A stretch of 64,000 nucleotides of DNA from contig CAMEEX010000002.1 of assembly GCA_945915235.1 (NCBI GenBank), positions 6-64,005 on the forward strand, read 5' to 3'. This DNA is from an uncultured Clostridia bacterium (GTDB lineage Bacteria; Bacillota; Clostridia; Lachnospirales; Lachnospiraceae). A program made the position numbers and the translations under genes. The notes under the pieces are model-generated. The model saw only the letters and a list, made by a program, of their open reading frames with translations, ran no database searches and was not told the DNA's origin. This document shows, one piece after another, positions 5,812 through 46,094 of the stretch (position 1 is the first letter of the stretch; every line of letters starts with the position of its first letter).

Positions 5812-7011
5812 CTATATCCAGCCATCAGCCTCGGCAAAATCCCAGAAAATCTCCTGCTGTTCAAACCATAGCAGTTTATTTTCCGGCACTCCGCGCCCGG
5901 CTAATTCTCTTTTTATTTCTGCCGACTTTACCTTATTCTTTACGGTTATCAGAATGTAGTCATAATCTATCCCTGCCAAATCCCTAGACGAAGTAAAATC
6001 CGAATCGACACTATATACAATCCTAAAGGAAGTATCCATAACCGCAACAACGCTGCTTCTTCCGTCATTTAAAATCTGTTTTTTATAAATCTCTCCCAGC
6101 TCACCTGCCCCGAACAGAATAAGCTTGGAATTGTGCGGTATCTTTTCCAGATAATACGGCTTAATCCATAATAAATTTTTATTTTCAAAACCAAGCCTTG
6201 AATTAATCCCCTTATACAACAGCTCTGTTATGTATAACTCAGCCTGCATTCTCATCGATGATGTAAAATTCGGATGAGCATACATGGAAATAAAATGCTG
6301 ATATACCGAGTTGACTGCTGTCAGATAATTTGTATTAGGCTTATGAACCATTGAAGAATTGTTCTGCATATAGTGATAGTAGGCTTCCCGTGCGATAAAA
6401 ACAGTTTTACAATCCAACATATATCTTACCACACATAATTTATCTTCCGAATAGGATATGCTGTCCTCAATACAATTCTGTGCCACACTTAATAAATCCT
6501 TTTTAAACAGCTTGCAGCACAGGGAACCTCTTATGCCGACATCCTTTTTTTCAATATTATATATGACCTGCTCTCTAAGCCCGTCCATTCTTTCTTCATC
6601 ATAGAAGCCCTCAGGAACGGTATCATAGTGCTGCGTTATATAATTTCCCTCATATTTATAACCGCTTGATACAAGGTCCGCACCCGTCTCGGTCATATAT
6701 CCGTAAAGCCTCTCATACATATCGTCATCAATCCAGTCATCGCTGTCGACGTATCCTATGTACTCCGAGCCTGCGCCTGCGATACCTGCCTTTCTCGCAG
6801 ACACAAGCCCCCCATTAGGCTTGTCAATTATCTTTATTCTGCAATCCCTGTCCTGATATCTTCTCAGCATATCAAGGCTGTTGTCTGTGGAGCCATCATT
6901 CACGCATATTATCTCTATATCCTCAAGAGTCTGTCTTAAGACACTGTCCAGACATCTCTCCAGATATTCAGAGGTATTATATACCGGTATTATTATCGAA
7001 ACCTTTGTCAT
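5812..7011 (-). CDS. GT2 glycosyltransferase with C-terminal Rossmann-like module
   Basis: VSIIIPVYNTSEYLERCLDSVLRQTLEDIEIICVNDGSTDNS and DSDDW are GT-A motifs. The C-terminus carries KLILFGAGELGEIYKKQIL...YDYILITV. Confidence 0.8.
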   Translation of the reverse strand: MTKVSIIIPVYNTSEYLERCLDSVLRQTLEDIEIICVNDGSTDNSLDMLRRYQDRDCRIKIIDKPNGGLVSARKAGIAGAGSEYIGYVDSDDWIDDDMYERLYGYMTETGADLVSSGYKYEGNYITQHYDTVPEGFYDEERMDGLREQVIYNIEKKDVGIRGSLCCKLFKKDLLSVAQNCIEDSISYSEDKLCVVRYMLDCKTVFIAREAYYHYMQNNSSMVHKPNTNYLTAVNSVYQHFISMYAHPNFTSSMRMQAELYITELLYKGINSRLGFENKNLLWIKPYYLEKIPHNSKLILFGAGELGEIYKKQILNDGRSSVVAVMDTSFRIVYSVDSDFTSSRDLAGIDYDYILITVKNKVKSAEIKRELAGRGVPENKLLWFEQQEIFWDFAEADGWI

Positions 7012-7017
7012 CTTTTT

Positions 7018-8448
7018 TCACCTGTTTTTTATCTTTTCAAGAATAATCGCTGCTATTTTTTCTGATGCATGTCCATCATCATAATTTTTCATTTTCCGCA
7101 TGAACTCATGCAGCCTGTGCCTGTAGGCATCATAATCAAAATCAAGTATCTTCCCACATAACTCGCTGTTGGACATACTCCTTATATATGGCAGTTCCTC
7201 CATAGGAATATAGAAATTCCTGTCATTAATATATTGCTCATAATCTTTCTGATATAAAAATACAGGACGTTCCGTAAACGAAAAATCATACATACAACCT
7301 GAATAGTCGGTTATCAGAACATCTGTTGCCGCCAGCAGCTCCTCGAAATCATCATATTTATCAACCGCTATATACACATTCTCATCAAAAGAATATTCTA
7401 TATTTCTGATATCCGGGTGTTTGCTTACTGCACACACAAACCTTCTGTTAAATCTTTTTTCTAACGCCCTGAGCACTTCATTTATGTCCAGATCATAATT
7501 CTCCGTTCCAAAATCCTTGCGGAACGTAGGAGCATACAGCACCATTCCAACCTCATCAGGTAGATTGTAATACTTGAAAACCTTTTCCCTTATATTGCTT
7601 TTGCTCCAGAATACATCCTGCCTCGGCAGACCAACCTGCGATATCTCGCCGTCATACCAGAAGGATTTTCTATACAGCTCGGTGTAAAATTCACTTCCCG
7701 AGATAAACAAATCCGCCATTTTAGAATCATTTATCGCATTGGCTAGATAGGTTTCAGGCAGCTTTTCTATTATATCCTTCTCAACCCTTTTTATGGGCGC
7801 TGCTCCATGCCATGCCTGAATGTAATACTGTCCCTGCCTTTTACGGGTGTCAAATGTCTTTCTTGAATTATCCACCCATATATGTGCTGTCGCCAGCTCT
7901 TCGTAATACTCTCTCGTTCCAAGCTTTACCTGCCTGATTTCCTTTGGAAGGTTATTGCTCAAATCGGACACAACCCACACCAGATCGCACTCTTTTTTTG
8001 TGTCCGATTCCAATAGTTTTTGTGCAATGTATTTAGGATTACAGCCGTATCCCATGCCCTTCATATTCATAAAAAGAATTTTATTGTTCTGTATCGGCTT
8101 CCTGTACAGCTTGTCATAAAACCCATCTATCAACTGTTCCGGATTTACAAAATACACCCGTGAACACCCAAGCCCGTTCAGCTTATCACCGATTATCTGA
8201 TGAAGCACTCTCTGAACGGCAACTATGTACAGCGCATCAGGATAAATCGCGCTTACCTTATCAACAACCTCAACATCAATACCGAATTTCTCATTGGCAT
8301 TCCCGCCCATTTCCGAAACGACAAAGTTTCTTATTTTATCTGAAAAACCATTTTCCTCCAAATAAAAATAGAGAATATTTGAAATTGTCCCTGCGCCATA
8401 TATAACTATATTTTCTGTTTCCTGACAAAGCATGTCCAGACTTTCCAT
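7018..8448 (-). CDS. TagB/TagF-family CDP-alcohol phosphotransferase with N-terminal Rossmann-like module
   Basis: The N-terminus carries NIVIYGAGTISNILYFYLEENGF...ALYIVAV. AWHGAAPIKR, LYAPTFR and ITDYSGCMYDFSFTERPVFLY follow. The start could instead be M6 (8433). Confidence 0.8.
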   Translation of the reverse strand: MESLDMLCQETENIVIYGAGTISNILYFYLEENGFSDKIRNFVVSEMGGNANEKFGIDVEVVDKVSAIYPDALYIVAVQRVLHQIIGDKLNGLGCSRVYFVNPEQLIDGFYDKLYRKPIQNNKILFMNMKGMGYGCNPKYIAQKLLESDTKKECDLVWVVSDLSNNLPKEIRQVKLGTREYYEELATAHIWVDNSRKTFDTRKRQGQYYIQAWHGAAPIKRVEKDIIEKLPETYLANAINDSKMADLFISGSEFYTELYRKSFWYDGEISQVGLPRQDVFWSKSNIREKVFKYYNLPDEVGMVLYAPTFRKDFGTENYDLDINEVLRALEKRFNRRFVCAVSKHPDIRNIEYSFDENVYIAVDKYDDFEELLAATDVLITDYSGCMYDFSFTERPVFLYQKDYEQYINDRNFYIPMEELPYIRSMSNSELCGKILDFDYDAYRHRLHEFMRKMKNYDDGHASEKIAAIILEKIKNR

Positions 8449-29434: not shown

Positions 29435-30372
29435 TTTCTTACCATATCCTCCATATATTCCATATCTGAAATTTCATACCTTTGGTCAATTGGAAGCGGT
29501 AATATATTTTTAGCAAACTCGTACTCCAATGTTCCTTCTTTACATTCCTCCAGCACATTTGGCCATAATGTCGGAACATAAATCTTGTTCAGCTGTAATT
29601 TTTTTCTCACTTCACAGCCATTCTTTATTAACAACGGATACATAAAAGCACCATATGGAACAATCAGGTCTAATTCATTTATATCTGAAAACGCTTTATA
29701 CAACTTCTCAAAATTATGTTGTCTTTTACTTCCTACACAATTATAATTAATGCCTCTCAATAGGTTTTCTGTTAATTTCGACATCGTTTTTATTGGCTGT
29801 ATCTCTATTAATGCATTGTTTTCAACATATTTGTCATAAAATTCACTTGCAGTACACTCGAAACGTCCAAGTAAAAAAGTCATTCTTGAATAAGATTCAT
29901 CTTGTTCAAGCTGTCTATCTATTTTTTTATTAGTATATAAAAAAGCACCATCCGCAACACCAAAATATTTACGACAGCTATATAATGTATCAACATTAGC
30001 AATTGGCATCTGAAAATAACTCTGCGTGTTATCCACAATAACATTTGTATATTTCTTTTTTAATTCATATAATATTGTGTTATCAAGTTGACCGTAAAAA
30101 TTAACTATATATATCCATTCATTCTCATTTATTTTTTCGCATATTGGCATAAAATGTTCATCAATATGATATTTTTCCACTTTTACATTATATTGAATAA
30201 ATACACTATCACATGAACTGCACATAAAAAACGGCATTAAAATATGCTTAATTTTTTTTGTTTCTATAATATAGGCCAATGCGTTTTTAGCACAATTCAA
30301 AGTCACTGCACCTTCATGAAGCATCGGTAAATTATAGTGTTCCAACTCTATATAACCACCAATTTCTTTCAT
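29422..30372 (-). CDS. Divergent DegT/DnrJ/EryC1/StrS-like fold-type-I PLP enzyme (tentative)
   Basis: The IGGYIELE N-terminus and YSCRKYFGVADGAFLY can be aligned to SFHATKVFNTIEGGAV of the neighbouring DegT enzyme, with the lysine retained. The assignment is weak. Confidence 0.45.
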   Translation of the reverse strand: MKEIGGYIELEHYNLPMLHEGAVTLNCAKNALAYIIETKKIKHILMPFFMCSSCDSVFIQYNVKVEKYHIDEHFMPICEKINENEWIYIVNFYGQLDNTILYELKKKYTNVIVDNTQSYFQMPIANVDTLYSCRKYFGVADGAFLYTNKKIDRQLEQDESYSRMTFLLGRFECTASEFYDKYVENNALIEIQPIKTMSKLTENLLRGINYNCVGSKRQHNFEKLYKAFSDINELDLIVPYGAFMYPLLIKNGCEVRKKLQLNKIYVPTLWPNVLEECKEGTLEYEFAKNILPLPIDQRYEISDMEYMEDMVRKCID

Positions 30373-31478
30373 TTCTTTTCCCCCATCACCCCAACTATTC
30401 TCTCCATCTTCTCCACCTCAAGTCCCTCATAAAACGGTATTGTCAGGACTCTGTCCGAGAGATTTCTGGCATTGTCAAGCTTGTCAAATCTGTATTTATT
30501 TCTGAAGCATGCCTGGTCTGCCGTAATCGGGTGGAAATACTTTCTTGCGTATATATTGTGCTCCCTTAACATATCATACAGTTCGTTTCTGCTCATTCCA
30601 TACTCATCATTTACCAAGATAGGGAAGTATGCGTAATTGCGGGTTGCTCCCTGACGCTGCTCAAGGAAGCCGATGCCCGGAATCTTGGAGAGCTGTTCCC
30701 TGTAGTACTCATAGCGTTCCTTTCTGTTTGCAAGCGCCTCATCAATATGCTTCAGATTGCACAATCCCATGATTGCACAGAACTCATTCATCTTAGCGTT
30801 AGCGCCGACGTCCGTCACCAGCTCCTCACCGTGAATTCCAAAGTTCTTGAGATTATAGAGCTTGTCATATATCTTGTGGTCAGAGAATGAAACCGCACCG
30901 CCCTCTATTGTATTGAACACCTTGGTTGCATGAAAGCTGAACACGGACGCATCTCCGTAGCAGCCTATTCCCTTCCCTTTGTATTCGACACCGAATGCAT
31001 GGGCTGCATCATATATCACCTTGAGATTGTACTTGTCGGCTATTCTCTGGATTTTCTCCACGTTGCATACATTTCCATAAACATGCACAGGTAGGATAGC
31101 CACTGTCTTTTCTGTGACAAGCTCCTCTATCTTACTCTCGTCAATCGTTCCGTCCTCCCAGTTCACATCGCAGAACACCGGTTTGAGGTGATTTCTGACA
31201 ATAGCGTGAGTCGTCGATATAAATGTGAACGGGGTCGTTATAACCTCACTTCCCTCAGGAAAGCCGAATGCCTGAATTGCAAGCTCAAGCGCCATATGAC
31301 CATTCACCATAAGCGACAGTCCCGGCACTCCAAGATAGTCTGTCAGCTTTGCCTCTAACTGCTTATGGTATGTTCCCATATTCGTGAGCCAGTGTGTGTC
31401 CCAAAGCGGCTTAATAGCCTCTATATATTCCTCGTATGATGGCATAGAGGATTGTGTAACTAGTATTCTGTCATCCAT
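30369..31478 (-). CDS. DegT/DnrJ/EryC1/StrS-family sugar aminotransferase
   Basis: VFSFHATKVFNTIEGGAV (PLP lysine) and TTPFTFISTTHA. The start is at ATG 31478 after AAAGGAAC. It overlaps the next gene by 4 nt (ATGA). Confidence 0.9.
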   Translation of the reverse strand: MDDRILVTQSSMPSYEEYIEAIKPLWDTHWLTNMGTYHKQLEAKLTDYLGVPGLSLMVNGHMALELAIQAFGFPEGSEVITTPFTFISTTHAIVRNHLKPVFCDVNWEDGTIDESKIEELVTEKTVAILPVHVYGNVCNVEKIQRIADKYNLKVIYDAAHAFGVEYKGKGIGCYGDASVFSFHATKVFNTIEGGAVSFSDHKIYDKLYNLKNFGIHGEELVTDVGANAKMNEFCAIMGLCNLKHIDEALANRKERYEYYREQLSKIPGIGFLEQRQGATRNYAYFPILVNDEYGMSRNELYDMLREHNIYARKYFHPITADQACFRNKYRFDKLDNARNLSDRVLTIPFYEGLEVEKMERIVGVMGEKK

Positions 31479-31523
31479 TATGTGTTCCTTTCCGGACCCC
31501 AACCTGAATGCATGATTTTCGCG

Positions 31524-31550
31524 ATTATATCATACAATAGGGAATTTCAA
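31524..31550 (-). promoter_or_regulatory. Candidate sigma-A promoter with extended -10 for the 24-gene glycan operon
   Basis: Minus strand reads TTGAAA (31550-31545), 15 nt, TGATATAAT (31532-31524). The spacer is short and the extended -10 is intact. It lies between the terminator and the first gene. Confidence 0.4.
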
Positions 31551-31567
31551 CGAAATCTCTTATCATA

Positions 31568-31596
31568 TTAAAAAGGCTGCCATTCCCATGGCAGCC
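31568..31596 (-). terminator. Rho-independent terminator downstream of the LicD-paralog pair
   Basis: Minus strand reads GGCTGCC-ATGGGAAT-GGCAGCC followed by TTTTT. The stem lies at 31575-31596. Confidence 0.75.
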
Positions 31597-31703
31597 TCTG
31601 TAAACTATCAATTCCCTATAATGCCTCCATGCATTTTACAACCCGCTATCCATGCGGATTCGTTGTTTCGTCCTGTTTTGTACACATTTCGATTAATTCT
31701 TAT
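31568..31703 (-). ncRNA. Candidate ~135-nt structured RNA (independent sRNA, attenuator leader or 3' UTR) with three GGA-loop hairpins
   Basis: No ORF is present. Hairpins are AUCCGC-AUGGAUA-GCGGGU (about 31641-31659), AAUGC-AUGGAG-GCAUU (about 31620-31635) and the terminator GGCUGCC-AUGGGAAU-GGCAGCC. It is bounded by a sigma-28-like promoter and a U-tract. Confidence 0.3.
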
Positions 31704-31710
31704 ATTTATT

Positions 31711-31737
31711 TTATCGGCATTTTCGGTATTTTCTTAA
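31711..31737 (-). promoter_or_regulatory. sigma-28 (SigD/FliA)-like promoter inside the LicD-to-DegT intergenic region
   Basis: Minus strand reads TTAA (31737-31734), 15 nt, GCCGATAA (31718-31711). The -10 is an exact match to the SigD -10 consensus as I know it. The -35 is weaker (consensus TAAA). Confidence 0.4.
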
Positions 31738-31779
31738 CCTTATTATAATTTTTGTACAATTTAAAGGGGGCCTTTTTAA

Positions 31780-34113
31780 TTACCCCACCTCCACATTCTC
31801 CAGCATAACCGGTTTGCCCGCGCGCACGAACTTCTGAATAATGCTGTCCACGTCACCATAGTACGCATGTCCTATCAGTGCGAGCTCATCGGGCTGTATT
31901 TTTCCGGTTCCGTCATATATTCCCCAGCCCTTTTTCAGATACTCGTCCACCACCGACACATACTCCTGCCACAGCTCGGGATATCTGCTCTCCAATACAG
32001 GTCCCACTATCGGATTGTCGATCCACAGGAAGGTTATTGACTCCGCTTCTCTCTCAAATGTCGCGAGTATGCTTCTCAGCTTTTCTATGTATCTGTCCCT
32101 GTTCTGAAGGATAAAGCTTATGTTATTCTTGTATACGACAACCTTCTTCTCCCTGCCGTCACCGTCGTACATGAGTTTCTTCCACTGCTCCGGCAAGGTT
32201 GAGATTACCTGCTTTCGCAGCGCCTGTTCTGTCTCCTGCCTGTATGCCGGCAATCTGGTCTGAATTTTCTTCTCCCATAGCTCTGCCGTATCGTCCCCGG
32301 CAAATTCAGCGAGCAGCTTCACATAGGTCTGTCTGAAGCTCTCCGACTTCACAATCACCCTGTCCGCCTGCATAACGCCCTTGCTGCACATGTAATTGCG
32401 TGCATTGAGCAGTGATTTCTCGTCATCGTCCCTGATATCATCGATATCAAACGGAGGAACGAATACCAGACAATCCGTATATTTTCTGAGATTATCCGAA
32501 TGAAACGGCGGATATATTCCTATAACAAAATCGTGCTGGTCATAAGGGCACTGTATATAAATCTCATCGGGGTGCCTTGAGGCAATGTCATACTGTCTGT
32601 AGTCGGTAAGCTGTACCGCCTCAGGAAAGCCTTCGCTCTCGTAGCAATCCTCAAGGATTTCTCCTCTTGCTGTTTTTATAAAGTACGGCTCGGGCATTAC
32701 GATCACATCGCAGTCCTCATCGTTGCTGTACTCTCTCCACAGGTCATCGAAACCTCTCCACAGTGATGCTTTATATGGTATGAATACTATCTCCCGTCTT
32801 TTTTGCAGTTTTTCAACACCGGCTTTTAATTTTGTGAGTGCGTCATCGACCATTCCGCACATAACCAGCCTGCTCTCCACGCTGCCCGCCTCACCCGAGC
32901 TTATCAGCTCGTACATGCTGTAGACGGTTTCACAGTATTCCTCGAATGTTTTTATAAGGCTGTCCGTATTGGAAAAATTGTTCTCAACCGCATTTCCCGC
33001 ACCTATGGCGACATTCTGGCAGCTCTCAAGAAGCTGCAACACCGTCTCAATATCGTTTGTCTGCACCAGCCTGATTATATTCGTGTGTATCTTGGCAAGC
33101 ACCTCAACCGCTTCAAGCACCTGTCTTTTCACATTTTCACGGATATTGACATCGCTCCTGACACACGGTTTTAAGTCCTCCTCAGAAAAATAATATTTGT
33201 AAGGGAGGCCATTGGTGTAGAGCTTCTCCGCCTCCGCCTCCGCTTTATCAAAATACGGGTAGTCGTGGACTCCGCCCGAATGTATAAGAACCATGTAATT
33301 TCCATAGTCCTCCCTCAGTATCTCATCATACATGGCGGGCGCATTGATGGTCATGTTCTCAAACGGAAGCTCTATAATATCCTTATAATACTCAAGCTTA
33401 TACTTATGAGTTCCCTTTTCTATCCAGTAAGTCATAAGTGCAACCTCTGTGGCGCCATCTTCGGGAGTATACAGCGCATACATCTTCTCCGCAAATTCAC
33501 ACATCTGATGGACAAGCGGCTTGTCCCTGTCGAAGTGGACATGGCAGAGTCTCTCGACGGTTTCCACCGCCTCAAGCGTGCTGGCAAATTCACATTGGTC
33601 CGTTCCGATGCTGTTTATTATTGAGGTTGCGAGCTTTATCATCTCCTTGCGAAATTCCTCGTCCTGCTCATTCGGCGCAATGTAGTCGAGCACAAATATA
33701 TCCACACCTGCCGGATACGGGAACTGATGAAATTTAGCTATATGTGTTTTTGTAAAATTTACCTTCGAGTCATTATTGACTCTGGTAATCATGTCATCAA
33801 AATCCAATGCCTCATGGACATTCAGAACATAATAGTCCTCCGGGAGCTCACTCTTAGCTATGCTGTTGAACTTATCATAGTCCTCTCTGAGCATGCCGAT
33901 ATCCAGGTCGTCGTCCCACGGCACGAACCCGCCATGGCGCACTGCTCCCAAAAGTGTTCCATAGTCTGCAAACCATCGGATATTATGTTTTTTGCACACT
34001 CTTGCGACCTCATTGAGCACCTCAAGCTCTGCCGCCCATGCCCTCTTAACTATACCTGGCACAAAAAAACCGTCTCTGACCTCATCATCAAAATAATTGT
34101 CCGGGAATTGCAT
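31780..34113 (-). CDS. Large LicD-domain protein (N-terminal LicD fold + ~500-aa uncharacterised C-terminal region), paralog A
   Basis: WFADYGTLLGAVRHGGFVPWDDDLDIGMLREDYDKF is LicD. I recognise no catalytic motif in the C-terminal region (VFIPYKASLW..., IYIQCPYDQHD, LVFVPPFDIDD). Confidence 0.75.
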   Translation of the reverse strand: MQFPDNYFDDEVRDGFFVPGIVKRAWAAELEVLNEVARVCKKHNIRWFADYGTLLGAVRHGGFVPWDDDLDIGMLREDYDKFNSIAKSELPEDYYVLNVHEALDFDDMITRVNNDSKVNFTKTHIAKFHQFPYPAGVDIFVLDYIAPNEQDEEFRKEMIKLATSIINSIGTDQCEFASTLEAVETVERLCHVHFDRDKPLVHQMCEFAEKMYALYTPEDGATEVALMTYWIEKGTHKYKLEYYKDIIELPFENMTINAPAMYDEILREDYGNYMVLIHSGGVHDYPYFDKAEAEAEKLYTNGLPYKYYFSEEDLKPCVRSDVNIRENVKRQVLEAVEVLAKIHTNIIRLVQTNDIETVLQLLESCQNVAIGAGNAVENNFSNTDSLIKTFEEYCETVYSMYELISSGEAGSVESRLVMCGMVDDALTKLKAGVEKLQKRREIVFIPYKASLWRGFDDLWREYSNDEDCDVIVMPEPYFIKTARGEILEDCYESEGFPEAVQLTDYRQYDIASRHPDEIYIQCPYDQHDFVIGIYPPFHSDNLRKYTDCLVFVPPFDIDDIRDDDEKSLLNARNYMCSKGVMQADRVIVKSESFRQTYVKLLAEFAGDDTAELWEKKIQTRLPAYRQETEQALRKQVISTLPEQWKKLMYDGDGREKKVVVYKNNISFILQNRDRYIEKLRSILATFEREAESITFLWIDNPIVGPVLESRYPELWQEYVSVVDEYLKKGWGIYDGTGKIQPDELALIGHAYYGDVDSIIQKFVRAGKPVMLENVEVG

Positions 34114-34134: not shown

Positions 34135-36456
34135 TTATATTTCAACGCTCTCAATCATAACAGGCACGCCGTTTTTCTGGCATATCCTCGACAAATAACA
34201 GCCATCTCCATAGTACGCATCGGCAAGCTCCGCTACAGCATGTCCATCTGACATGTCATGTATTCCGATATCGCTGGCACAGGCTGCCAGTTCTTCTATC
34301 TCTCCGGCAAGCTTCGGATTTGTCCGTCTCACGGACTCCATCGTACATTCAGGGAAATTCCAAACCACTGCAATATCCTGAGAGTTATCCTTAAACACCT
34401 CTAAAGCCCGCCTGACCTTCGCTGCGGCAGCCGCGCCATTCTCAAGGAAAAAGCCGACCTCGTTATGGTATAATATTATTTTTTTCCTGCTGCCGTCGGG
34501 CTTATAGATTATCCTTCTGACCTCGTCAGGCATATCGGCAAGCTTCTGCTCATTATGCACGGCAGCCTGTCCGTCAGCCACAGTCGTCTGGTTCCCCGTT
34601 CCGACAAGCTTCTGCTCCCATATACTTCTGCTGTCCTCACCTGCCCATTCGGTCAGCTTATCACAGTACACTTTTTTCAGCGCCTCCGATTGTACCATAA
34701 CCCGATGTGCTCTCACTACCCCCGGCACAGGGGCATAATGCTTCATATTATGATACTCGCGCTCGTCGCTGTCCGTGAACTCATCAACGGCAAACGGCGT
34801 AACATATATCATGGTCTCGCAGCTCTCCAGAAGCTTTCCCGTATAATATGCCGGGTGTATGCTTATCCCCTCATTCCACTCGTCATACGGATTTTGTATA
34901 TATACAACATCTGGTCTGTGTAGTGCAATATCATATTCATTGTACTTCACCACCCTGACGTTTTCCGGCGTATCTTGAAGCAGCTCTAAAAACGCCTCAT
35001 ATTCGCAGTGCTCATCGTACAATGCGCCATCGTATCTTTTATGGAAATAAGGTACCGGTATGACATATATTTTACAGTCACTCTGTACTGCTTTCAGGTA
35101 TTCAGCCCTTATATACTGCCACTGTGCAGTCCTTGACACGACAAAAACCGTTTCCTTCCTGTCAATTATGTCCTTCCGAACACATTCAGCTATCTCCACG
35201 GCGCATTTTCTAAGCTTCTCCGCCGCATCGCCCTTCTGAACCTGCTCGTACAGAAGCTCACAATAATTTTCCAAAATTCCGACTGTCTCAAGTCCTTCTC
35301 CATACTGCTGCTCTATGAGCGTACCGAAATCAACCGCAAGCTGCTGTGCCTCATACGGATCCTTAATATCATAAAGCTCCTCACATACCGCATGGGCGAT
35401 ATCCTCGAAGCTGTCAGCAGCTTTCGCCTTCCGGCATTCACCCAAGGCATATTCTTTCTCCGTCTCGTTGTACTCATACTTAGGAAGCGTTATGTCCATC
35501 AGTGCATCAAGCTGCGCCTGCTGGCTCTCGTAAAACGGATAGCCGTGACCGCTGCAATCCTTATGTATCTCCAGATAATTCCCATACCGCTTTCTAAGCA
35601 TCGCGTCATACCCTATCGGAACCGGTATTGTGGTATTTTCAAACGGTATTCTCACACAGTCCTCATAGTATTCCTTCTTATACCTGTGATTTTTCCTTCT
35701 GAGTCCGAAAGGATACAACTGCGTAAGCTCATCGCTCTCCTTATCACTGAACTTTGCAAATAGTCTTTCCGCCTGAATGTACATATATTGATGCAGCTCA
35801 GATATGTACTTTTTTACCTCATCATCGGCGCTGTCCCCGGCAAGCCAGTTCTCTATATATCTCCTGTTGTACATTCCATGTATGCAGCCCGTCTGTGTAA
35901 GTTTGTTAAGCCCGTCAAAGGCGTCCTTCACACTAATATTCTTTTCCGCTATATGGTCCGCGAGCGTAATCGTATAGTCAGCGAGAACATCCCTCGTCTT
36001 TTCAGCCTCCGCGTCTCTTGCAACATAGTCCATAAGAAATATGTCAACGCCCGCAATGTACGGAAATTCATGATATTTTCTCAGATGGGCTTCATCATAG
36101 CTCATGTGTCCGGTGTTCATCACCCTTGCAAGGAACAGCCAGAAATCATCTCTTGTATGCAGGTTATTAATCTTGTATCCCTGCGGCAGCTCACTCTCGG
36201 CGACCTTGAGAAACTTCTCATAATCGGCGCGTTTCATGCCGATATCCAGATCATCGTCCCACGGTATAAAACCGTTATGTCTCACCGCCCCGAGCAGTGT
36301 TCCCCACTCTGCAAAATACTGTATATTGTGCCTGCGGCATATCCTGTCAATCTGCTCAAGGACTTCCAGCTCCGCCGCCCATGCACGCTTTATCATGGAA
36401 GGTACAAAAAATCCCTCCCTAATCTCATCTTCAAAATATTCTTCCGGAAACTGCAT
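34135..36456 (-). CDS. Large LicD-domain protein, paralog B (same architecture as 31780-34113)
   Basis: MQFPEEYFEDEIREGFFVPSMIKRAWAAELEVL...YFAEWGTLLGAVRHNGFIPWDDDLDIGMKRADYEKF. It is collinear with paralog A along the whole length (VVYIQNPYDEWNE, MIYVTPFAVDEF). Confidence 0.75.
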   Translation of the reverse strand: MQFPEEYFEDEIREGFFVPSMIKRAWAAELEVLEQIDRICRRHNIQYFAEWGTLLGAVRHNGFIPWDDDLDIGMKRADYEKFLKVAESELPQGYKINNLHTRDDFWLFLARVMNTGHMSYDEAHLRKYHEFPYIAGVDIFLMDYVARDAEAEKTRDVLADYTITLADHIAEKNISVKDAFDGLNKLTQTGCIHGMYNRRYIENWLAGDSADDEVKKYISELHQYMYIQAERLFAKFSDKESDELTQLYPFGLRRKNHRYKKEYYEDCVRIPFENTTIPVPIGYDAMLRKRYGNYLEIHKDCSGHGYPFYESQQAQLDALMDITLPKYEYNETEKEYALGECRKAKAADSFEDIAHAVCEELYDIKDPYEAQQLAVDFGTLIEQQYGEGLETVGILENYCELLYEQVQKGDAAEKLRKCAVEIAECVRKDIIDRKETVFVVSRTAQWQYIRAEYLKAVQSDCKIYVIPVPYFHKRYDGALYDEHCEYEAFLELLQDTPENVRVVKYNEYDIALHRPDVVYIQNPYDEWNEGISIHPAYYTGKLLESCETMIYVTPFAVDEFTDSDEREYHNMKHYAPVPGVVRAHRVMVQSEALKKVYCDKLTEWAGEDSRSIWEQKLVGTGNQTTVADGQAAVHNEQKLADMPDEVRRIIYKPDGSRKKIILYHNEVGFFLENGAAAAAKVRRALEVFKDNSQDIAVVWNFPECTMESVRRTNPKLAGEIEELAACASDIGIHDMSDGHAVAELADAYYGDGCYLSRICQKNGVPVMIESVEI

Positions 36457-36486: not shown

Positions 36487-36513
36487 ATATCGGTTAATTC
36501 TCTGTTATTATTA
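36487..36513 (-). promoter_or_regulatory. sigma-28 (SigD)-like promoter upstream of the LicD-paralog pair
   Basis: Minus strand reads TAAT (36513-36510), 15 nt, ACCGATAT (36494-36487). This is the same -10 octamer as the fliC promoter, about 30 nt upstream of ATG 36456. Confidence 0.4.
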
Positions 36514-36540
36514 ATATTACTGCAATCTGCCGTATCGCGT

Positions 36541-40604: not shown

Positions 40605-41423
40605 TTAGCCAAGGATTGAAAGAACACCCTGTGTTGACTGATTAGCCTGTGCAAGCATAGACTGTCCAGCCTGAGCAAGAATGTTGTTCTTGCTGTAGCT
40701 AACCATCTCATCAGCCATATCAGTATCACGGATACGTGACTCAGCTGAAGATGTGTTCTCAGATGTTGTGTCAAGGTTAGCGATTGTGTGCTCAAGTCTG
40801 TTCTGGATAGCACCGAGCTTAGATCTCTGTGTAGATACACTCTCGATAGCCTTCTGAATAGCGCTCATTGTAACACCAGCTGTTGCGTTAGAGCTTACCT
40901 TAAGATTATCAGCTGATAAGCCGATAGCTGATGCAGACATGTTACTAATAGAGATAGACATTGTCTGCCCCTTAAGAGCACCGATCTGAAGAGACTTGTT
41001 CTTGAATGATCCAGTTAACAGGTTCTGAGTATTGAACTGTGTTGTAGACTGAATTCTGTCAAGCTCTTTCTTAAGCTCATCGATCTCATCCTTGATAGAG
41101 TTTCTATCAACTGTTGTGTTAGTATCGTTAGCAGCCTGCGTAGCGAGCTCGTTCATTCTCTGAAGAATGGAGTGTGCCTCGTTAAGAGCACCTTCTGCTG
41201 TCTGGATAAGAGATACGCCGTCAGCTGCGTTGTCAGATGCCTTATCAAGACCTCTGATCTGATATCTCATCTTCTCGGAAATTGAAAGACCAGCTGCGTC
41301 ATCGCCTGCTCTGTTAATTCTGTAACCTGAAGATAACTTCTCTGCTGACTTAGCCTGTGCGCTAGTTGTGATGCCTAACTGTCTGTTAGAGTTCATCGCT
41401 GTAAGATTGTGCTGTACTACCAT
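40605..41423 (-). CDS. fliC: Flagellin (short, 272 aa)
   Basis: The N-terminus is MVVQHNLTAMNSNRQLGITTSAQAKSAEKLSSGYRINRAGDDAAGLSISEKMR. The C-terminus is LAQAGQSMLAQANQSTQGVLSILG. The central segment is Ser/Thr-rich. Confidence 0.95.
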   Translation of the reverse strand: MVVQHNLTAMNSNRQLGITTSAQAKSAEKLSSGYRINRAGDDAAGLSISEKMRYQIRGLDKASDNAADGVSLIQTAEGALNEAHSILQRMNELATQAANDTNTTVDRNSIKDEIDELKKELDRIQSTTQFNTQNLLTGSFKNKSLQIGALKGQTMSISISNMSASAIGLSADNLKVSSNATAGVTMSAIQKAIESVSTQRSKLGAIQNRLEHTIANLDTTSENTSSAESRIRDTDMADEMVSYSKNNILAQAGQSMLAQANQSTQGVLSILG

Positions 41424-41430
41424 GATATAT

Positions 41431-41464
41431 TCCTCCTTGAATATCTATCGGCATCCATGCCGAT
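41431..41464 (-). promoter_or_regulatory. Putative CsrA-binding sites in the fliC leader (GGA-loop hairpin plus SD-overlapping site)
   Basis: Minus strand reads AUCGGCA-UGGA-UGCCGAU (41464-41447), 8 nt, AAGGAGGA (41438-41431), then ATG. This arrangement parallels the two-site CsrA operator of B. subtilis hag. Confidence 0.45.
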
Positions 41465-41524
41465 GTGAATTGTTGTAGAGGCTCTGCCTCCAAGTTGGTA
41501 AGTATTTCTTACCTTCTGTATATT

Positions 41525-41551
41525 ATATCGGTTCAAAGTCCTATAACTTTA
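41525..41551 (-). promoter_or_regulatory. sigma-28 (SigD/FliA) promoter of fliC
   Basis: Minus strand reads TAAA (41551-41548), 15 nt, ACCGATAT (41532-41525). The consensus is TAAA-N15-GCCGATAA. Confidence 0.7.
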
Positions 41552-41580
41552 TACCCGAATAATATCTTTTTTTAAATTTT

Positions 41581-45420: not shown

Positions 45421-45639
45421 CTATCCCAGAAGGTTCTTGAGTGCCTCTGCTCCGTCTGACTCACTCGCTGCCCTATTGGCATCCTTAATCTGCACATATA
45501 CTTCCTTGCGGTACACCGGAACAGCCTTTGGAGCAGTGATGCCAATCTTGACCTGATCGCCTTTTATTTCGAGTACAGTTATCTCTATGTCGTTGTTGAT
45601 TACAATGGTTTCATTCTTCTTTCTCGATAAAGCAAGCAT
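45421..45639 (-). CDS. csrA: Carbon storage regulator CsrA (flagellar type)
   Basis: MLALSRKKNETIVINNDIEITVLEIKGDQVKIGITAPKAVPVYRKEVY. It overlaps fliW by 1 nt (TAATG). Confidence 0.95.
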   Translation of the reverse strand: MLALSRKKNETIVINNDIEITVLEIKGDQVKIGITAPKAVPVYRKEVYVQIKDANRAASESDGAEALKNLLG

Positions 45640-46094
45640 TACTTCTCCTCCTTCATCTTCTGAATGTAATCGTACACATTGTAGCGGACCTCGTACTCGT
45701 CATTGTTTACAATGAGCTGACATGCCTTTTTCGTATTCATGTTGATAACCACCGGTGCCTTCAGGTTAGCCGTCATCTTTGTAAGGTCTGACGGAACCGT
45801 GACAACCGAAAGAAGAAAATAGTCAGCCTCCGACTCAACCTCGCCCAGAGGAGCAAGCTGCTCATCATCCACAACCGGGTTGTACTGCGCTATTATATTC
45901 ATTGGGTCAATAACGGTGAAGGCAAGCTTCGGCTCGTCAAGACACTGAAGCCACATAATCTTCCCCTTCTTCTCAGAATTATATATCAAAGTGTAGTGTG
46001 TATACTCTTCAAAGCCCATCAACCCCTGAGTAAATGTGATTATCCTGTCCTGTGCTACCTCAATCTCCCCAAATAATCTTGTATTGACTTTCAT
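45639..46094 (-). CDS. fliW: Flagellar assembly factor FliW (CsrA antagonist)
   Basis: MKVNTRLFGEIEVAQDRIITFTQGLMGFEEYTHYTLI...ANLKAPVVIN. Confidence 0.95.
   Translation of the reverse strand: MKVNTRLFGEIEVAQDRIITFTQGLMGFEEYTHYTLIYNSEKKGKIMWLQCLDEPKLAFTVIDPMNIIAQYNPVVDDEQLAPLGEVESEADYFLLSVVTVPSDLTKMTANLKAPVVINMNTKKACQLIVNNDEYEVRYNVYDYIQKMKEEK

Follow-up and report, generated by a model that had tools for sequence, protein, structure and literature searches.

A segment of the minus strand that encodes no conserved protein stands at the head of a long array of glycan genes in a 64,000-nucleotide (nt) stretch of DNA from an uncultured Clostridia bacterium of the Lachnospiraceae (contig CAMEEX010000002.1; the whole stretch is referred to here as the window), and the question it raises is what an RNA made from it would do. 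The element (31570-31737) consists of a SigD-type promoter, two hairpins with GGA in their loops and an intrinsic terminator, without a conserved open reading frame (ORF), and its intergenic host lies between a 777-aa (amino acid) LicD-family gene, whose stop codon is at 31780, and a DegT-family aminotransferase gene that starts at an ATG at 31478. The initial annotation of this DNA had left three alternatives, i.e. (a) an independent small RNA (sRNA) that titrates or delivers CsrA, (b) a CsrA-responsive attenuator of the glycan operon or (c) a structured 3' untranslated region (UTR) belonging to the LicD operon. The best fit is given by (b), with a co-oriented glycosylation gene downstream, short gaps and complementarity between a hairpin loop and a terminator arm. 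Our reading, tentative and with a chance that we would put only a little short of even, is that a flagellin-glycan operon has its SigD-dependent promoter and 5' leader here and is subject to CsrA-controlled attenuation; most likely, the leader ties the sugar-decoration of flagellin to the FliW-CsrA flagellin checkpoint.

Architecture of the element and its likeness to the flagellin leader

The promoter has the SigD (sigma-28) -35 box TTAA (31734-31737), inside a family-conserved GGTWAA, and the -10 box GCCGATAA (31711-31718; family consensus GCCGATAT), both assigned by reading the sequence and by conservation in the family described below. The B. subtilis sigma-D consensus is TAAA-N15-GCCGATAT, and the window promoter, TTAA-N15-GCCGATAA, agrees with it at 3/4 positions of the -35 box and 7/8 positions of the -10 box and has the same 15-nt spacer; the -10 box is thus not identical to the consensus, as had been claimed. 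The transcript start is predicted, from promoter geometry only, at ~31702-31704, and would be followed by a variable 5' segment (31661-31704) that includes CAGGACG. Hairpin 1 (31640-31660; AAUCCGC-AUGGAUA-GCGGGUU, -7.9 kcal/mol) presents GGA in its loop, hairpin 2 (31620-31635; AAUGC-AUGGAG-GCAUU, -3.0 kcal/mol) has a 6-nt loop and a GGAGG that resembles a Shine-Dalgarno sequence (SD), and the terminator (31570-31597, -20.3 kcal/mol) is a GGCUGCC/GGCAGCC stem, extendable to 11-12 bp, with the loop AUGGGAAU and a U5 tract at 31574-31570. RNAfold recovers all three hairpins, with a minimum free energy (MFE) of -38 kcal/mol and z = -4.8 (0/200 shuffled sequences were as stable), and the promoter and three GGA-loop hairpins proposed for the minus strand, the last of them the terminator, are borne out. 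The terminator, and a possible extended -10 promoter that follows it, were read from the sequence and the folds; an automated promoter/terminator scan missed both. The earlier statement that no ORF follows the promoter is correct for conserved ORFs, although a 28-codon ORF with a TTG start, without conservation, does occur after hairpin 2.

Both GGA hairpins have counterparts in the leader of the window's own flagellin gene. The fliC gene has a SigD promoter, TAAA-N15-ACCGATAT, and a 5' leader (together 41421-41553, minus strand; sequence reading and fold) with four hairpins (z = -5.0), the last two of which are a BS1-type hairpin, AUCGGCA-UGGA-UGCCGAU, followed by AUAUUC-AAGGAG-GAAUAU, which displays the SD in a 6-nt loop. 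The first of these is the AUCGGC-AUGGAU-GCCGAU hairpin already noticed in the initial annotation, and is found at 41464-41447. Hairpin 1 of the element differs from fliC BS1 by essentially one flipped base pair and one extra loop base, and hairpin 2 has the geometry of the fliC SD hairpin, i.e. a 6-nt loop NUGGAG followed by G. The two GGA motifs are 23 nt apart in the element, 20 nt apart in the window's fliC leader and mostly 18-24 nt apart family-wide. Because the hairpin pair, the loop geometry and the GGA spacing all resemble the fliC leader, the element is, to judge by its sequence, the flagellin CsrA operator copied, with a terminator where the start codon would stand. It contains what is expected of a hag-type operator in having at least two GGA sites, at least one of them in a hairpin loop, at a distance (~10-60 nt) that suits one CsrA dimer; in such operators the second site also overlaps the SD of the regulated ORF, whereas here the regulated ORF begins after the terminator. 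The same likeness was seen from the other side on unrelated contigs of 58% GC (L103, 5047-5088, and L121; L numbers are our handles for loci), where the identical 12-mer hairpin UGC-AUGGAG-GCA occurs in the SigD-driven leader of a flagellin gene (identified by Pfam), ~21 nt upstream of the SD GGGAGG. A distant organism evidently uses hairpin 2, in its exact sequence, as a flagellin-leader site.

The presumed trans-acting partners are encoded on the minus strand of the window by csrA (45421-45639; Pfam CsrA, 5.5e-26) and fliW (45639-46094; Pfam FliW, 3.4e-41), and Pfam also confirms the flagellin, FliD, the LicD paralogs and DegT. The CsrAs of Roseburia, Agathobacter and another Lachnospiraceae species repress a two-GGA-hairpin hag leader in B. 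subtilis (PMC13443453), and by analogy CsrA would be expected to bind the leader described here.

The window carries two more SigD-type promoters on the same strand, those of fliC and of the first LicD gene, and the glycosylation island is therefore predicted to be built of SigD-driven units. Published in-silico sigma-28 assignments for the fliC genes of Roseburia and Eubacterium agree with this layout (PMC3720852). The promoter of the first LicD paralog (ATTAAT..N15..ACCGATAT, 36487-36515, minus strand) lies ~30 nt 5' of its ATG at 36456, with a short leader that has the SD AGGGAGAAAG and no terminator, and the LicD pair appears to be a SigD unit of its own.

Two further observations concern flagellar leaders. 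The fliC leader contains at 41476-41492 (minus strand) an extra hairpin, UGGAGGC-AGA-GCCUCUA, in which a second GGAGG is buried in the stem; its GGAGGC:GCCUC pairing is the same as that of the antiterminator proposed below between hairpin 2 and the terminator arm. In L049 (~6535-6640) and L051 (~7978-8085), both on the plus strand, TAAA-N15-TCCGATAT is followed by a GGA-loop hairpin (GCGG-GGAAAGU-CCGC), the SD GGAGG and an ORF that begins MAIEALGG and may be flaG-like; it is possibly a further case of a CsrA-type leader in front of a flagellar gene.

A family of leaders upstream of glycosylation genes

A blastn search with the intergenic region as query found no match in 73 species-level genome loci whose DegT homologues are ≤78% identical. 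The primary sequence was thus too diverged for blastn, and motif and descriptor searches were needed. (The 369-aa DegT with its ATG start had no exact-protein record; a 377-aa form with a TTG start was recovered via a homologue search.) Searching the genome loci for GCATGGAGGC gave two further instances, L003 and L038, while L012 was recovered by a descriptor search and L052 by promoter listing. A scan of metagenomes with TGCCGATAW-N(29-84)-TGCATGGAGGCA returned 69 loci, ~40 of them obvious members and the remainder chance matches in GC-rich coding DNA. Deduplication left at least 25 distinct variants, which come from genomes of Lachnospiraceae and from gut metagenomes, and a descriptor that combines CCGATAW, two GGA-loop hairpins and a terminator gave 8 matches in real loci and 0 in shuffled sequence. 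Rfam 15 has no family at the gathering threshold in the window or in 13 family loci, and at E ≤ 10 over 31400-31850 there was only sub-threshold noise, the top CsrC match scoring 8.5 bits against a threshold of 61 bits. The variants are a family of putative Lachnospiraceae leader RNAs that was not found in any catalogue searched. A first covariance model (R1), built from 10 short-class sequences, was discarded as too narrow, since the window and the long class scored only locally, on hairpin 2, and L012 and L052 were missed; the hairpins were tabulated explicitly in its place and the long class was aligned with MAFFT.

The promoter is conserved in these leaders: GCCGATAT is the -10 box in 24/28 family variants, and GGTWAA is kept as the -35 box across the 28, reading T(A/T)A(A/G) in most and lying exactly 15 nt from GCCGATA. 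As the -35 box was absent from the search pattern, its conservation was not imposed by the search.

Conservation of the hairpins with compensatory changes in relatives, which the initial annotation had named as a check, was found in L074-L079 and in the long class. In L074-L079 the DegT is 98% identical and the intergenic region is heavily diverged, the surviving islands being GGTTAAGAAA, ATGCCGATAA and a 22-nt block with an identical hairpin 2. Hairpin 1 keeps its loop AUGGAUA on a stem changed by compensatory substitutions (GUCUGU/ACGGAC), and the terminator is kept with compensatory and wobble changes; the 5' segment with CAGGACG, UAGGGAAU and the post-terminator sequence are not conserved between these loci and the window. 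The variable 5' segment, diverged in L074, is absent from the short-class variants. In L087-L089 (DegT 81% identical) the sequence is different and the architecture the same: a perfect TAAA-N15-GCCGATAT precedes GAUUC-AGGAC-GAAUC, AUGC-AUGGAG-GCAU and an unrelated terminator. Across the family, hairpin 1 is built on at least 14 different stems of 4-9 bp, and its loop lacks GGA in a single variant only. The hairpin-2 core uGCAUGGAGGCa (uGC-AUGGAG-GCa) is present in all variants from the motif search and its outer pairs covary (AUGC/GCAU, UUGC/GCAA and G-U variants); in L052, which was found independently, the AUGGAG loop is carried by another stem (AUC/GAU), and L012 has AUGC-AGGAU-GCAU. For the long subclass (six distinct sequences including the window), 93.7% of the structure cells pair, compared with 22-60% when the partners are slid, and there are double changes at three pairs; the terminator has the same 5' arm, GCUGCCAUG, throughout, and a 3' arm that differs through wobble changes.

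Not everything that is present in the window is conserved. The three GGA hairpins and two unpaired GGAs noted initially can all be seen there, and two GGA hairpins alone are conserved family-wide. The terminator-loop GGA was considered as a third CsrA site and rejected, since this GGA is missing from L094 and L140 and forms part of the stem in the L087 class, and the unpaired GGAs (CAGGACG and UAGGGAAU) are not conserved outside the closest relatives. From these losses it follows that the conserved unit is, as far as the variants can tell, two GGA hairpins and not three to five. The 10-bp inverted repeat that had been noted (31610-31619 / 31537-31546) is real: it is paired in the long fold, encloses the terminator and overlaps the putative downstream promoter. 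It too is confined to the closest relatives, having one mismatch in L120, being partial in L084/L085 and absent in L074, and as a functional clamp it was rejected for its presence in the nearest relatives only. In a read-through RNA the repeat could occlude the downstream -35 region. Attenuation by a leader peptide or small ORF was also rejected, as neither a start codon nor a peptide is conserved downstream of the GGAGG; what looks like a peptide in the L087 subgroup is the terminator in translation, and its sister variants do not have it.

The family is bound more tightly to what follows it than to what precedes it. In the window the DegT/DnrJ-family aminotransferase gene (30369-31478, minus strand; Pfam) is the first of 24 consecutive minus-strand ORFs, running from 31478 down to 3533, a count that matches the 24-gene glycan operon of the initial annotation. 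Wherever enough downstream sequence is available (~27 distinct loci), the next ORF is on the same strand as the element; it starts ≤160 nt from the end of hairpin 2 in all but one of these loci, and typically 20-90 nt after the U-tract. Some of the gaps from U-tract to start codon leave too little room for a separate promoter, being only ~20-45 nt long in L087, L038, L003, L098 and L112 (~33 nt before the L087 DegT, 30-45 nt in L038 and L003). The downstream genes vary by locus, and all are of the sugar-modification type, i.e. DegT, another aminotransferase, LicD, a PseB-like dehydratase, UDP-GlcNAc 2-epimerase, radical SAM, SDR, acyl carrier protein, GT4 or a glycerophosphotransferase-like protein. 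The upstream genes are mutually unrelated (Maf/MptE-like, GT8, GT2-TPR, Caps_synth, GDPD, GNAT, AAA-ATPase/PDDEXK, LicD and FlgN), and in one locus the upstream gene is on the opposite strand; in L003 it is FlgN, directly after fliD-fliS, with a transposase remnant between it and the element. Because the upstream genes are unrelated while the downstream co-orientation is constant, this arrangement argues strongly that the element acts as a leader in cis and is not a LicD 3' UTR. The layout of an attenuator, with promoter, leader, intrinsic terminator and co-oriented operon, was seen in all family loci, the window itself having a possible extra promoter.

Some observations were made at the edges of the family. 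Between flgN and the element in L003 (~2330-2600) is a frameless relic that looks like a PD-(D/E)XK/Rpn-type transposase, and AAA-ATPase/PDDEXK genes lie just 5' of the element in several other loci, which may be a sign that the cassette of promoter and leader occupies recombination-prone joints of glycosylation islands. L080-L082, in which DegT is 88% identical, have in their first ~125 nt a different leader upstream of DegT, with an 11-bp 5' hairpin, a possible GGA hairpin CGC-GAGGAU-GCG and the terminator AUGUGCC-AAGG-CACAU-U6, and these contigs end before any promoter. At L090 (5499-5600) a SigD promoter is followed by a leader with UGCAUGGAGGCA as the SD region of an ORF that looks fliS-like by eye (MTRYQAYQGNQV...); this is a pattern match outside the family, in which the motif doubles as a true ribosome-binding site.

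Hairpin 2, the terminator and a possible switch

The hairpin-2 loop segment CAUGGAGGC (31623-31631) has an alternative partner in the terminator 5' arm GCUGCCAUG (31587-31595), with which it would form an antiterminator. In the window this helix pairs CAUGG-A-GGC (31631-31623) with GCU-G-CCAUG (31595-31587), and takes up the whole GGA loop and nearly the whole of the terminator 5' arm; RNAduplex gave -11.8 kcal/mol, compared with -5.5 ± 2.0 kcal/mol for shuffled arms. For the nascent RNA, hairpin 1 with the antiterminator was predicted at -17.5 kcal/mol and hairpin 1 with hairpin 2 at -13.1 kcal/mol, i.e. a difference of 4.4 kcal/mol in favour of the antiterminator. The recurring CAUGGA is thereby given a concrete, predicted role, as the loop CAUGG is complementary to the CCAUG at the top of the terminator.

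We folded each leader truncated before the terminator 3' arm, and in most variants the 5' arm paired with the hairpin-2 region. The energy gained by adding the arm was greater than for shuffled arms (mean z = -1.2, Fisher p = 1e-5, an optimistic value, as discussed below), and the energy of the duplex between hairpin-2 segment and arm had a mean z of -2.0 over 19 variants. The same duplex test over 15 largely non-homologous terminator types gave a mean z of -1.76 (Fisher combined p = 6e-9, optimistic in the same way). As a control, 58 unrelated terminators from the same DNA had a mean z of -0.34, with 5% below -2, whereas 17 family terminator types had a mean z of -1.62, with 59% below -2 (Mann-Whitney p = 0.005). 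An invariant 5' arm opposite a drifting 3' arm, as in the long class, is also the pattern to be expected of a 5' arm that pairs with two partners. The complementarity of hairpin 2 to the 5' arm suggests that the leader may form an antiterminator/terminator switch under the control of CsrA.

The sequences show how the element is built and conserved, its promoter, its linkage in cis, its likeness to the fliC leader and the surplus of complementarity; CsrA binding, a direction of regulation and conditional termination we infer, as follows. When flagellin is not exported and FliW is occupied, CsrA would be free, and one dimer would clamp hairpins 1 and 2. The clamped hairpin-2 loop could not pair with the terminator 5' arm, in which case the terminator would form and the ~135-nt RNA would be released. 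When FliW sequesters CsrA, the CAUGGAGGC loop would instead pair with the 5' arm as antiterminator, and RNA polymerase would read through into DegT and the glycan genes, i.e. glycan synthesis would be switched on when flagellin translation is de-repressed. The terminated leaders, each with a CsrA dimer, would perhaps serve as a weak decoy.

Several points weigh against this mechanism. All of its support is in silico, and no precedent for CsrA control of an intrinsic terminator was found in the literature. About 6/17 terminator types (L100, L105/L144/L152, L118, L126, L150 and L012) have no excess complementarity to hairpin 2, and the antiterminators (-7 to -17 kcal/mol) are weaker than the terminators (-9 to -22 kcal/mol); a local hairpin could displace the antiterminator. 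The hairpin-1 loop of L094, AUGAAUG, has no GGA, and the invariance of hairpin 2 was partly imposed by the search pattern, which fixed its core. The variants are phylogenetically related, and the combined p-values given above are for this reason optimistic. Finally, the window has a possible sigma-A promoter 3' of the terminator (31524-31550, minus strand; sequence reading), with TTGAAA (31550-31545) and the extended -10 TGaTATAAT (31532-31524). It is conserved neither in the near-identical L084/L085 nor in L074, and its role is uncertain; this plausible extended -10 promoter may make read-through dispensable in this genome.

There is another explanation, in which the segment is a SigD promoter and structured 5' UTR whose leaky terminator works constitutively, as a fixed attenuator or insulator that keeps the ratio of glycan to flagellin low; the GGA hairpins would then serve CsrA-dependent mRNA stability or translation, or another factor, and termination would not be regulated by CsrA. 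The cis linkage and the promoter conservation fit this equally well, hairpin 1, hairpin 2 and the terminator coexist in the MFE folds of the full leader, GGA is also frequent in the SD regions of the downstream genes, and it would account for the third of the terminator types that lack complementarity to hairpin 2. What it leaves unexplained is the near-invariant AUGGAG|G loop, the excess complementarity of this loop to otherwise unrelated terminator 5' arms, and the invariance of the 5' arm against the drift of the 3' arm, and we regard it as rather unlikely. We consider it unlikely that the element is a free-standing, trans-acting sRNA, i.e. that the SigD-dependent ~135-nt RNA is the end product, a decoy of the flagellin leader that titrates or delivers CsrA and eases fliC repression, with the adjacency to glycan genes incidental or due to co-inheritance. 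The discrete unit from promoter to terminator, the strength of the window terminator (-20 kcal/mol with U5), the two CsrA-type hairpins that copy the fliC operator and the possible separate promoter for DegT in the window would all suit such an sRNA, and the C. jejuni flaA leader itself titrates CsrA (PMC4894983). Against these stand the invariant orientation and adjacency of the downstream gene over ~27 loci, with some gaps of 30-45 nt, the poor U-tracts of many family terminators, which suggest leakiness, the conservation of only two GGA hairpins where sponges of the CsrB/RsmZ type have many, and the lack of an Rfam match to Csr/Rsm RNAs (8.5 against 61 bits for CsrC). Titration is nevertheless compatible with CsrA-controlled attenuation, as terminated leaders keep two CsrA-type sites, and what survives of alternative (a) is thus a possible by-product of termination.

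Alternative (c), a structured 3' UTR and terminator of the upstream LicD operon, has effectively been rejected and seems to us highly improbable. The element does follow the LicD stop codon (31780) on the same strand, with only a weak hairpin (AAAGG-CCC-CCUUU) in between, so that LicD transcripts may enter it, and LicD is also the upstream gene in L134, L087 and L074. Elsewhere its place is taken by the other upstream genes listed above, among them FlgN with its transposase remnant, and the conserved SigD -35 and -10 boxes stand between the upstream stop codon and the hairpins.

Significance and comparison with known systems

To our knowledge, the CsrA of Firmicutes is thought to have essentially one job (flagellin translation), one antagonist (FliW) and no known regulatory RNA partner. 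We found no report in the literature of a CsrA-binding regulatory RNA or of a CsrA-dependent intrinsic attenuator in Firmicutes, and the earlier statement that no CsrB-like sponge is known in this phylum agrees with the searchable literature. If CsrA-controlled attenuation is true, it would give the FliW-CsrA checkpoint a second output, at the level of transcription, and would show how flagellin and the highly variable glycosylation islands stay in step, by means of a compact and portable control cassette that consists of a SigD promoter, CsrA sites and a terminator. In human-gut Lachnospiraceae, abundant bacteria with flagellins that are major immune antigens, this cassette seems to have been placed before many unrelated sugar genes. 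It is possible, though on balance doubtful, that the element is in full a TRAP-like, CsrA-controlled intrinsic-terminator riboregulator that extends the Hag-FliW-CsrA checkpoint to the transcription of glycosylation genes and whose terminated product is a CsrA decoy; it would be the first riboregulator of this kind, and its product the first CsrA decoy RNA of Firmicutes.

The CsrB/CsrC/RsmX/Y/Z sponges (Rfam clan CL00106) are, like the element, non-coding, with GGA in hairpin loops and a Rho-independent terminator. The element differs from them in having two conserved GGA hairpins where they have 4-22, in being driven by SigD and not by GacA/UvrY, and in its obligate cis link to a downstream operon; there is no covariance-model match, and it lacks what would make it a member of this group. 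In the E. coli pgaA leader, as Figueroa-Bossi et al. are said to have described in 2014, CsrA promotes Rho-dependent termination by exposing a rut site. A 5' leader whose structure is changed by bound CsrA, with premature termination as the result, would be common to the two, whereas pgaA depends on Rho and the element is proposed to set an intrinsic terminator against an antiterminator.

Among the closest known systems is the hag leader of B. subtilis, a translational operator for CsrA in the Hag-FliW-CsrA partner switch (Yakhnin 2007; Mukherjee 2011; see PMC13443453 for a summary). It has, like the element, a SigD promoter and two GGA sites separated by ~20 nt, of which the first sits in a hairpin loop and the other is an SD-type GGAGG; the window's own fliC leader has this layout, with csrA and fliW in the same flagellar locus, as with hag. 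In the element, unlike in the hag leader, a terminator comes after the second site, where there is neither a start codon nor a conserved ORF; the genes under its predicted control encode glycosylation enzymes, and the predicted output is read-through and not the occlusion of ribosomes. In C. jejuni, which has FliW and lacks Csr sRNAs, the leader of the flaA mRNA is both a target and a titrator of CsrA (PMC4894983); that leader is part of the flagellin mRNA itself, whereas the element is a predicted non-coding copy of the operator ahead of glycosylation genes. The logic proposed here is that of the TRAP-trp leader of B. subtilis (PMC3064811) and of PyrR-type attenuators, in which a protein bound to the leader prevents an antiterminator that overlaps the terminator 5' arm, and an intrinsic terminator then forms ahead of the operon. 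In the TRAP system the protein binds 11 (G/U)AG repeats and the signal is a metabolite, whereas here CsrA would bind two GGA hairpin loops and the signal would be the state of flagellar export, conveyed via FliW.

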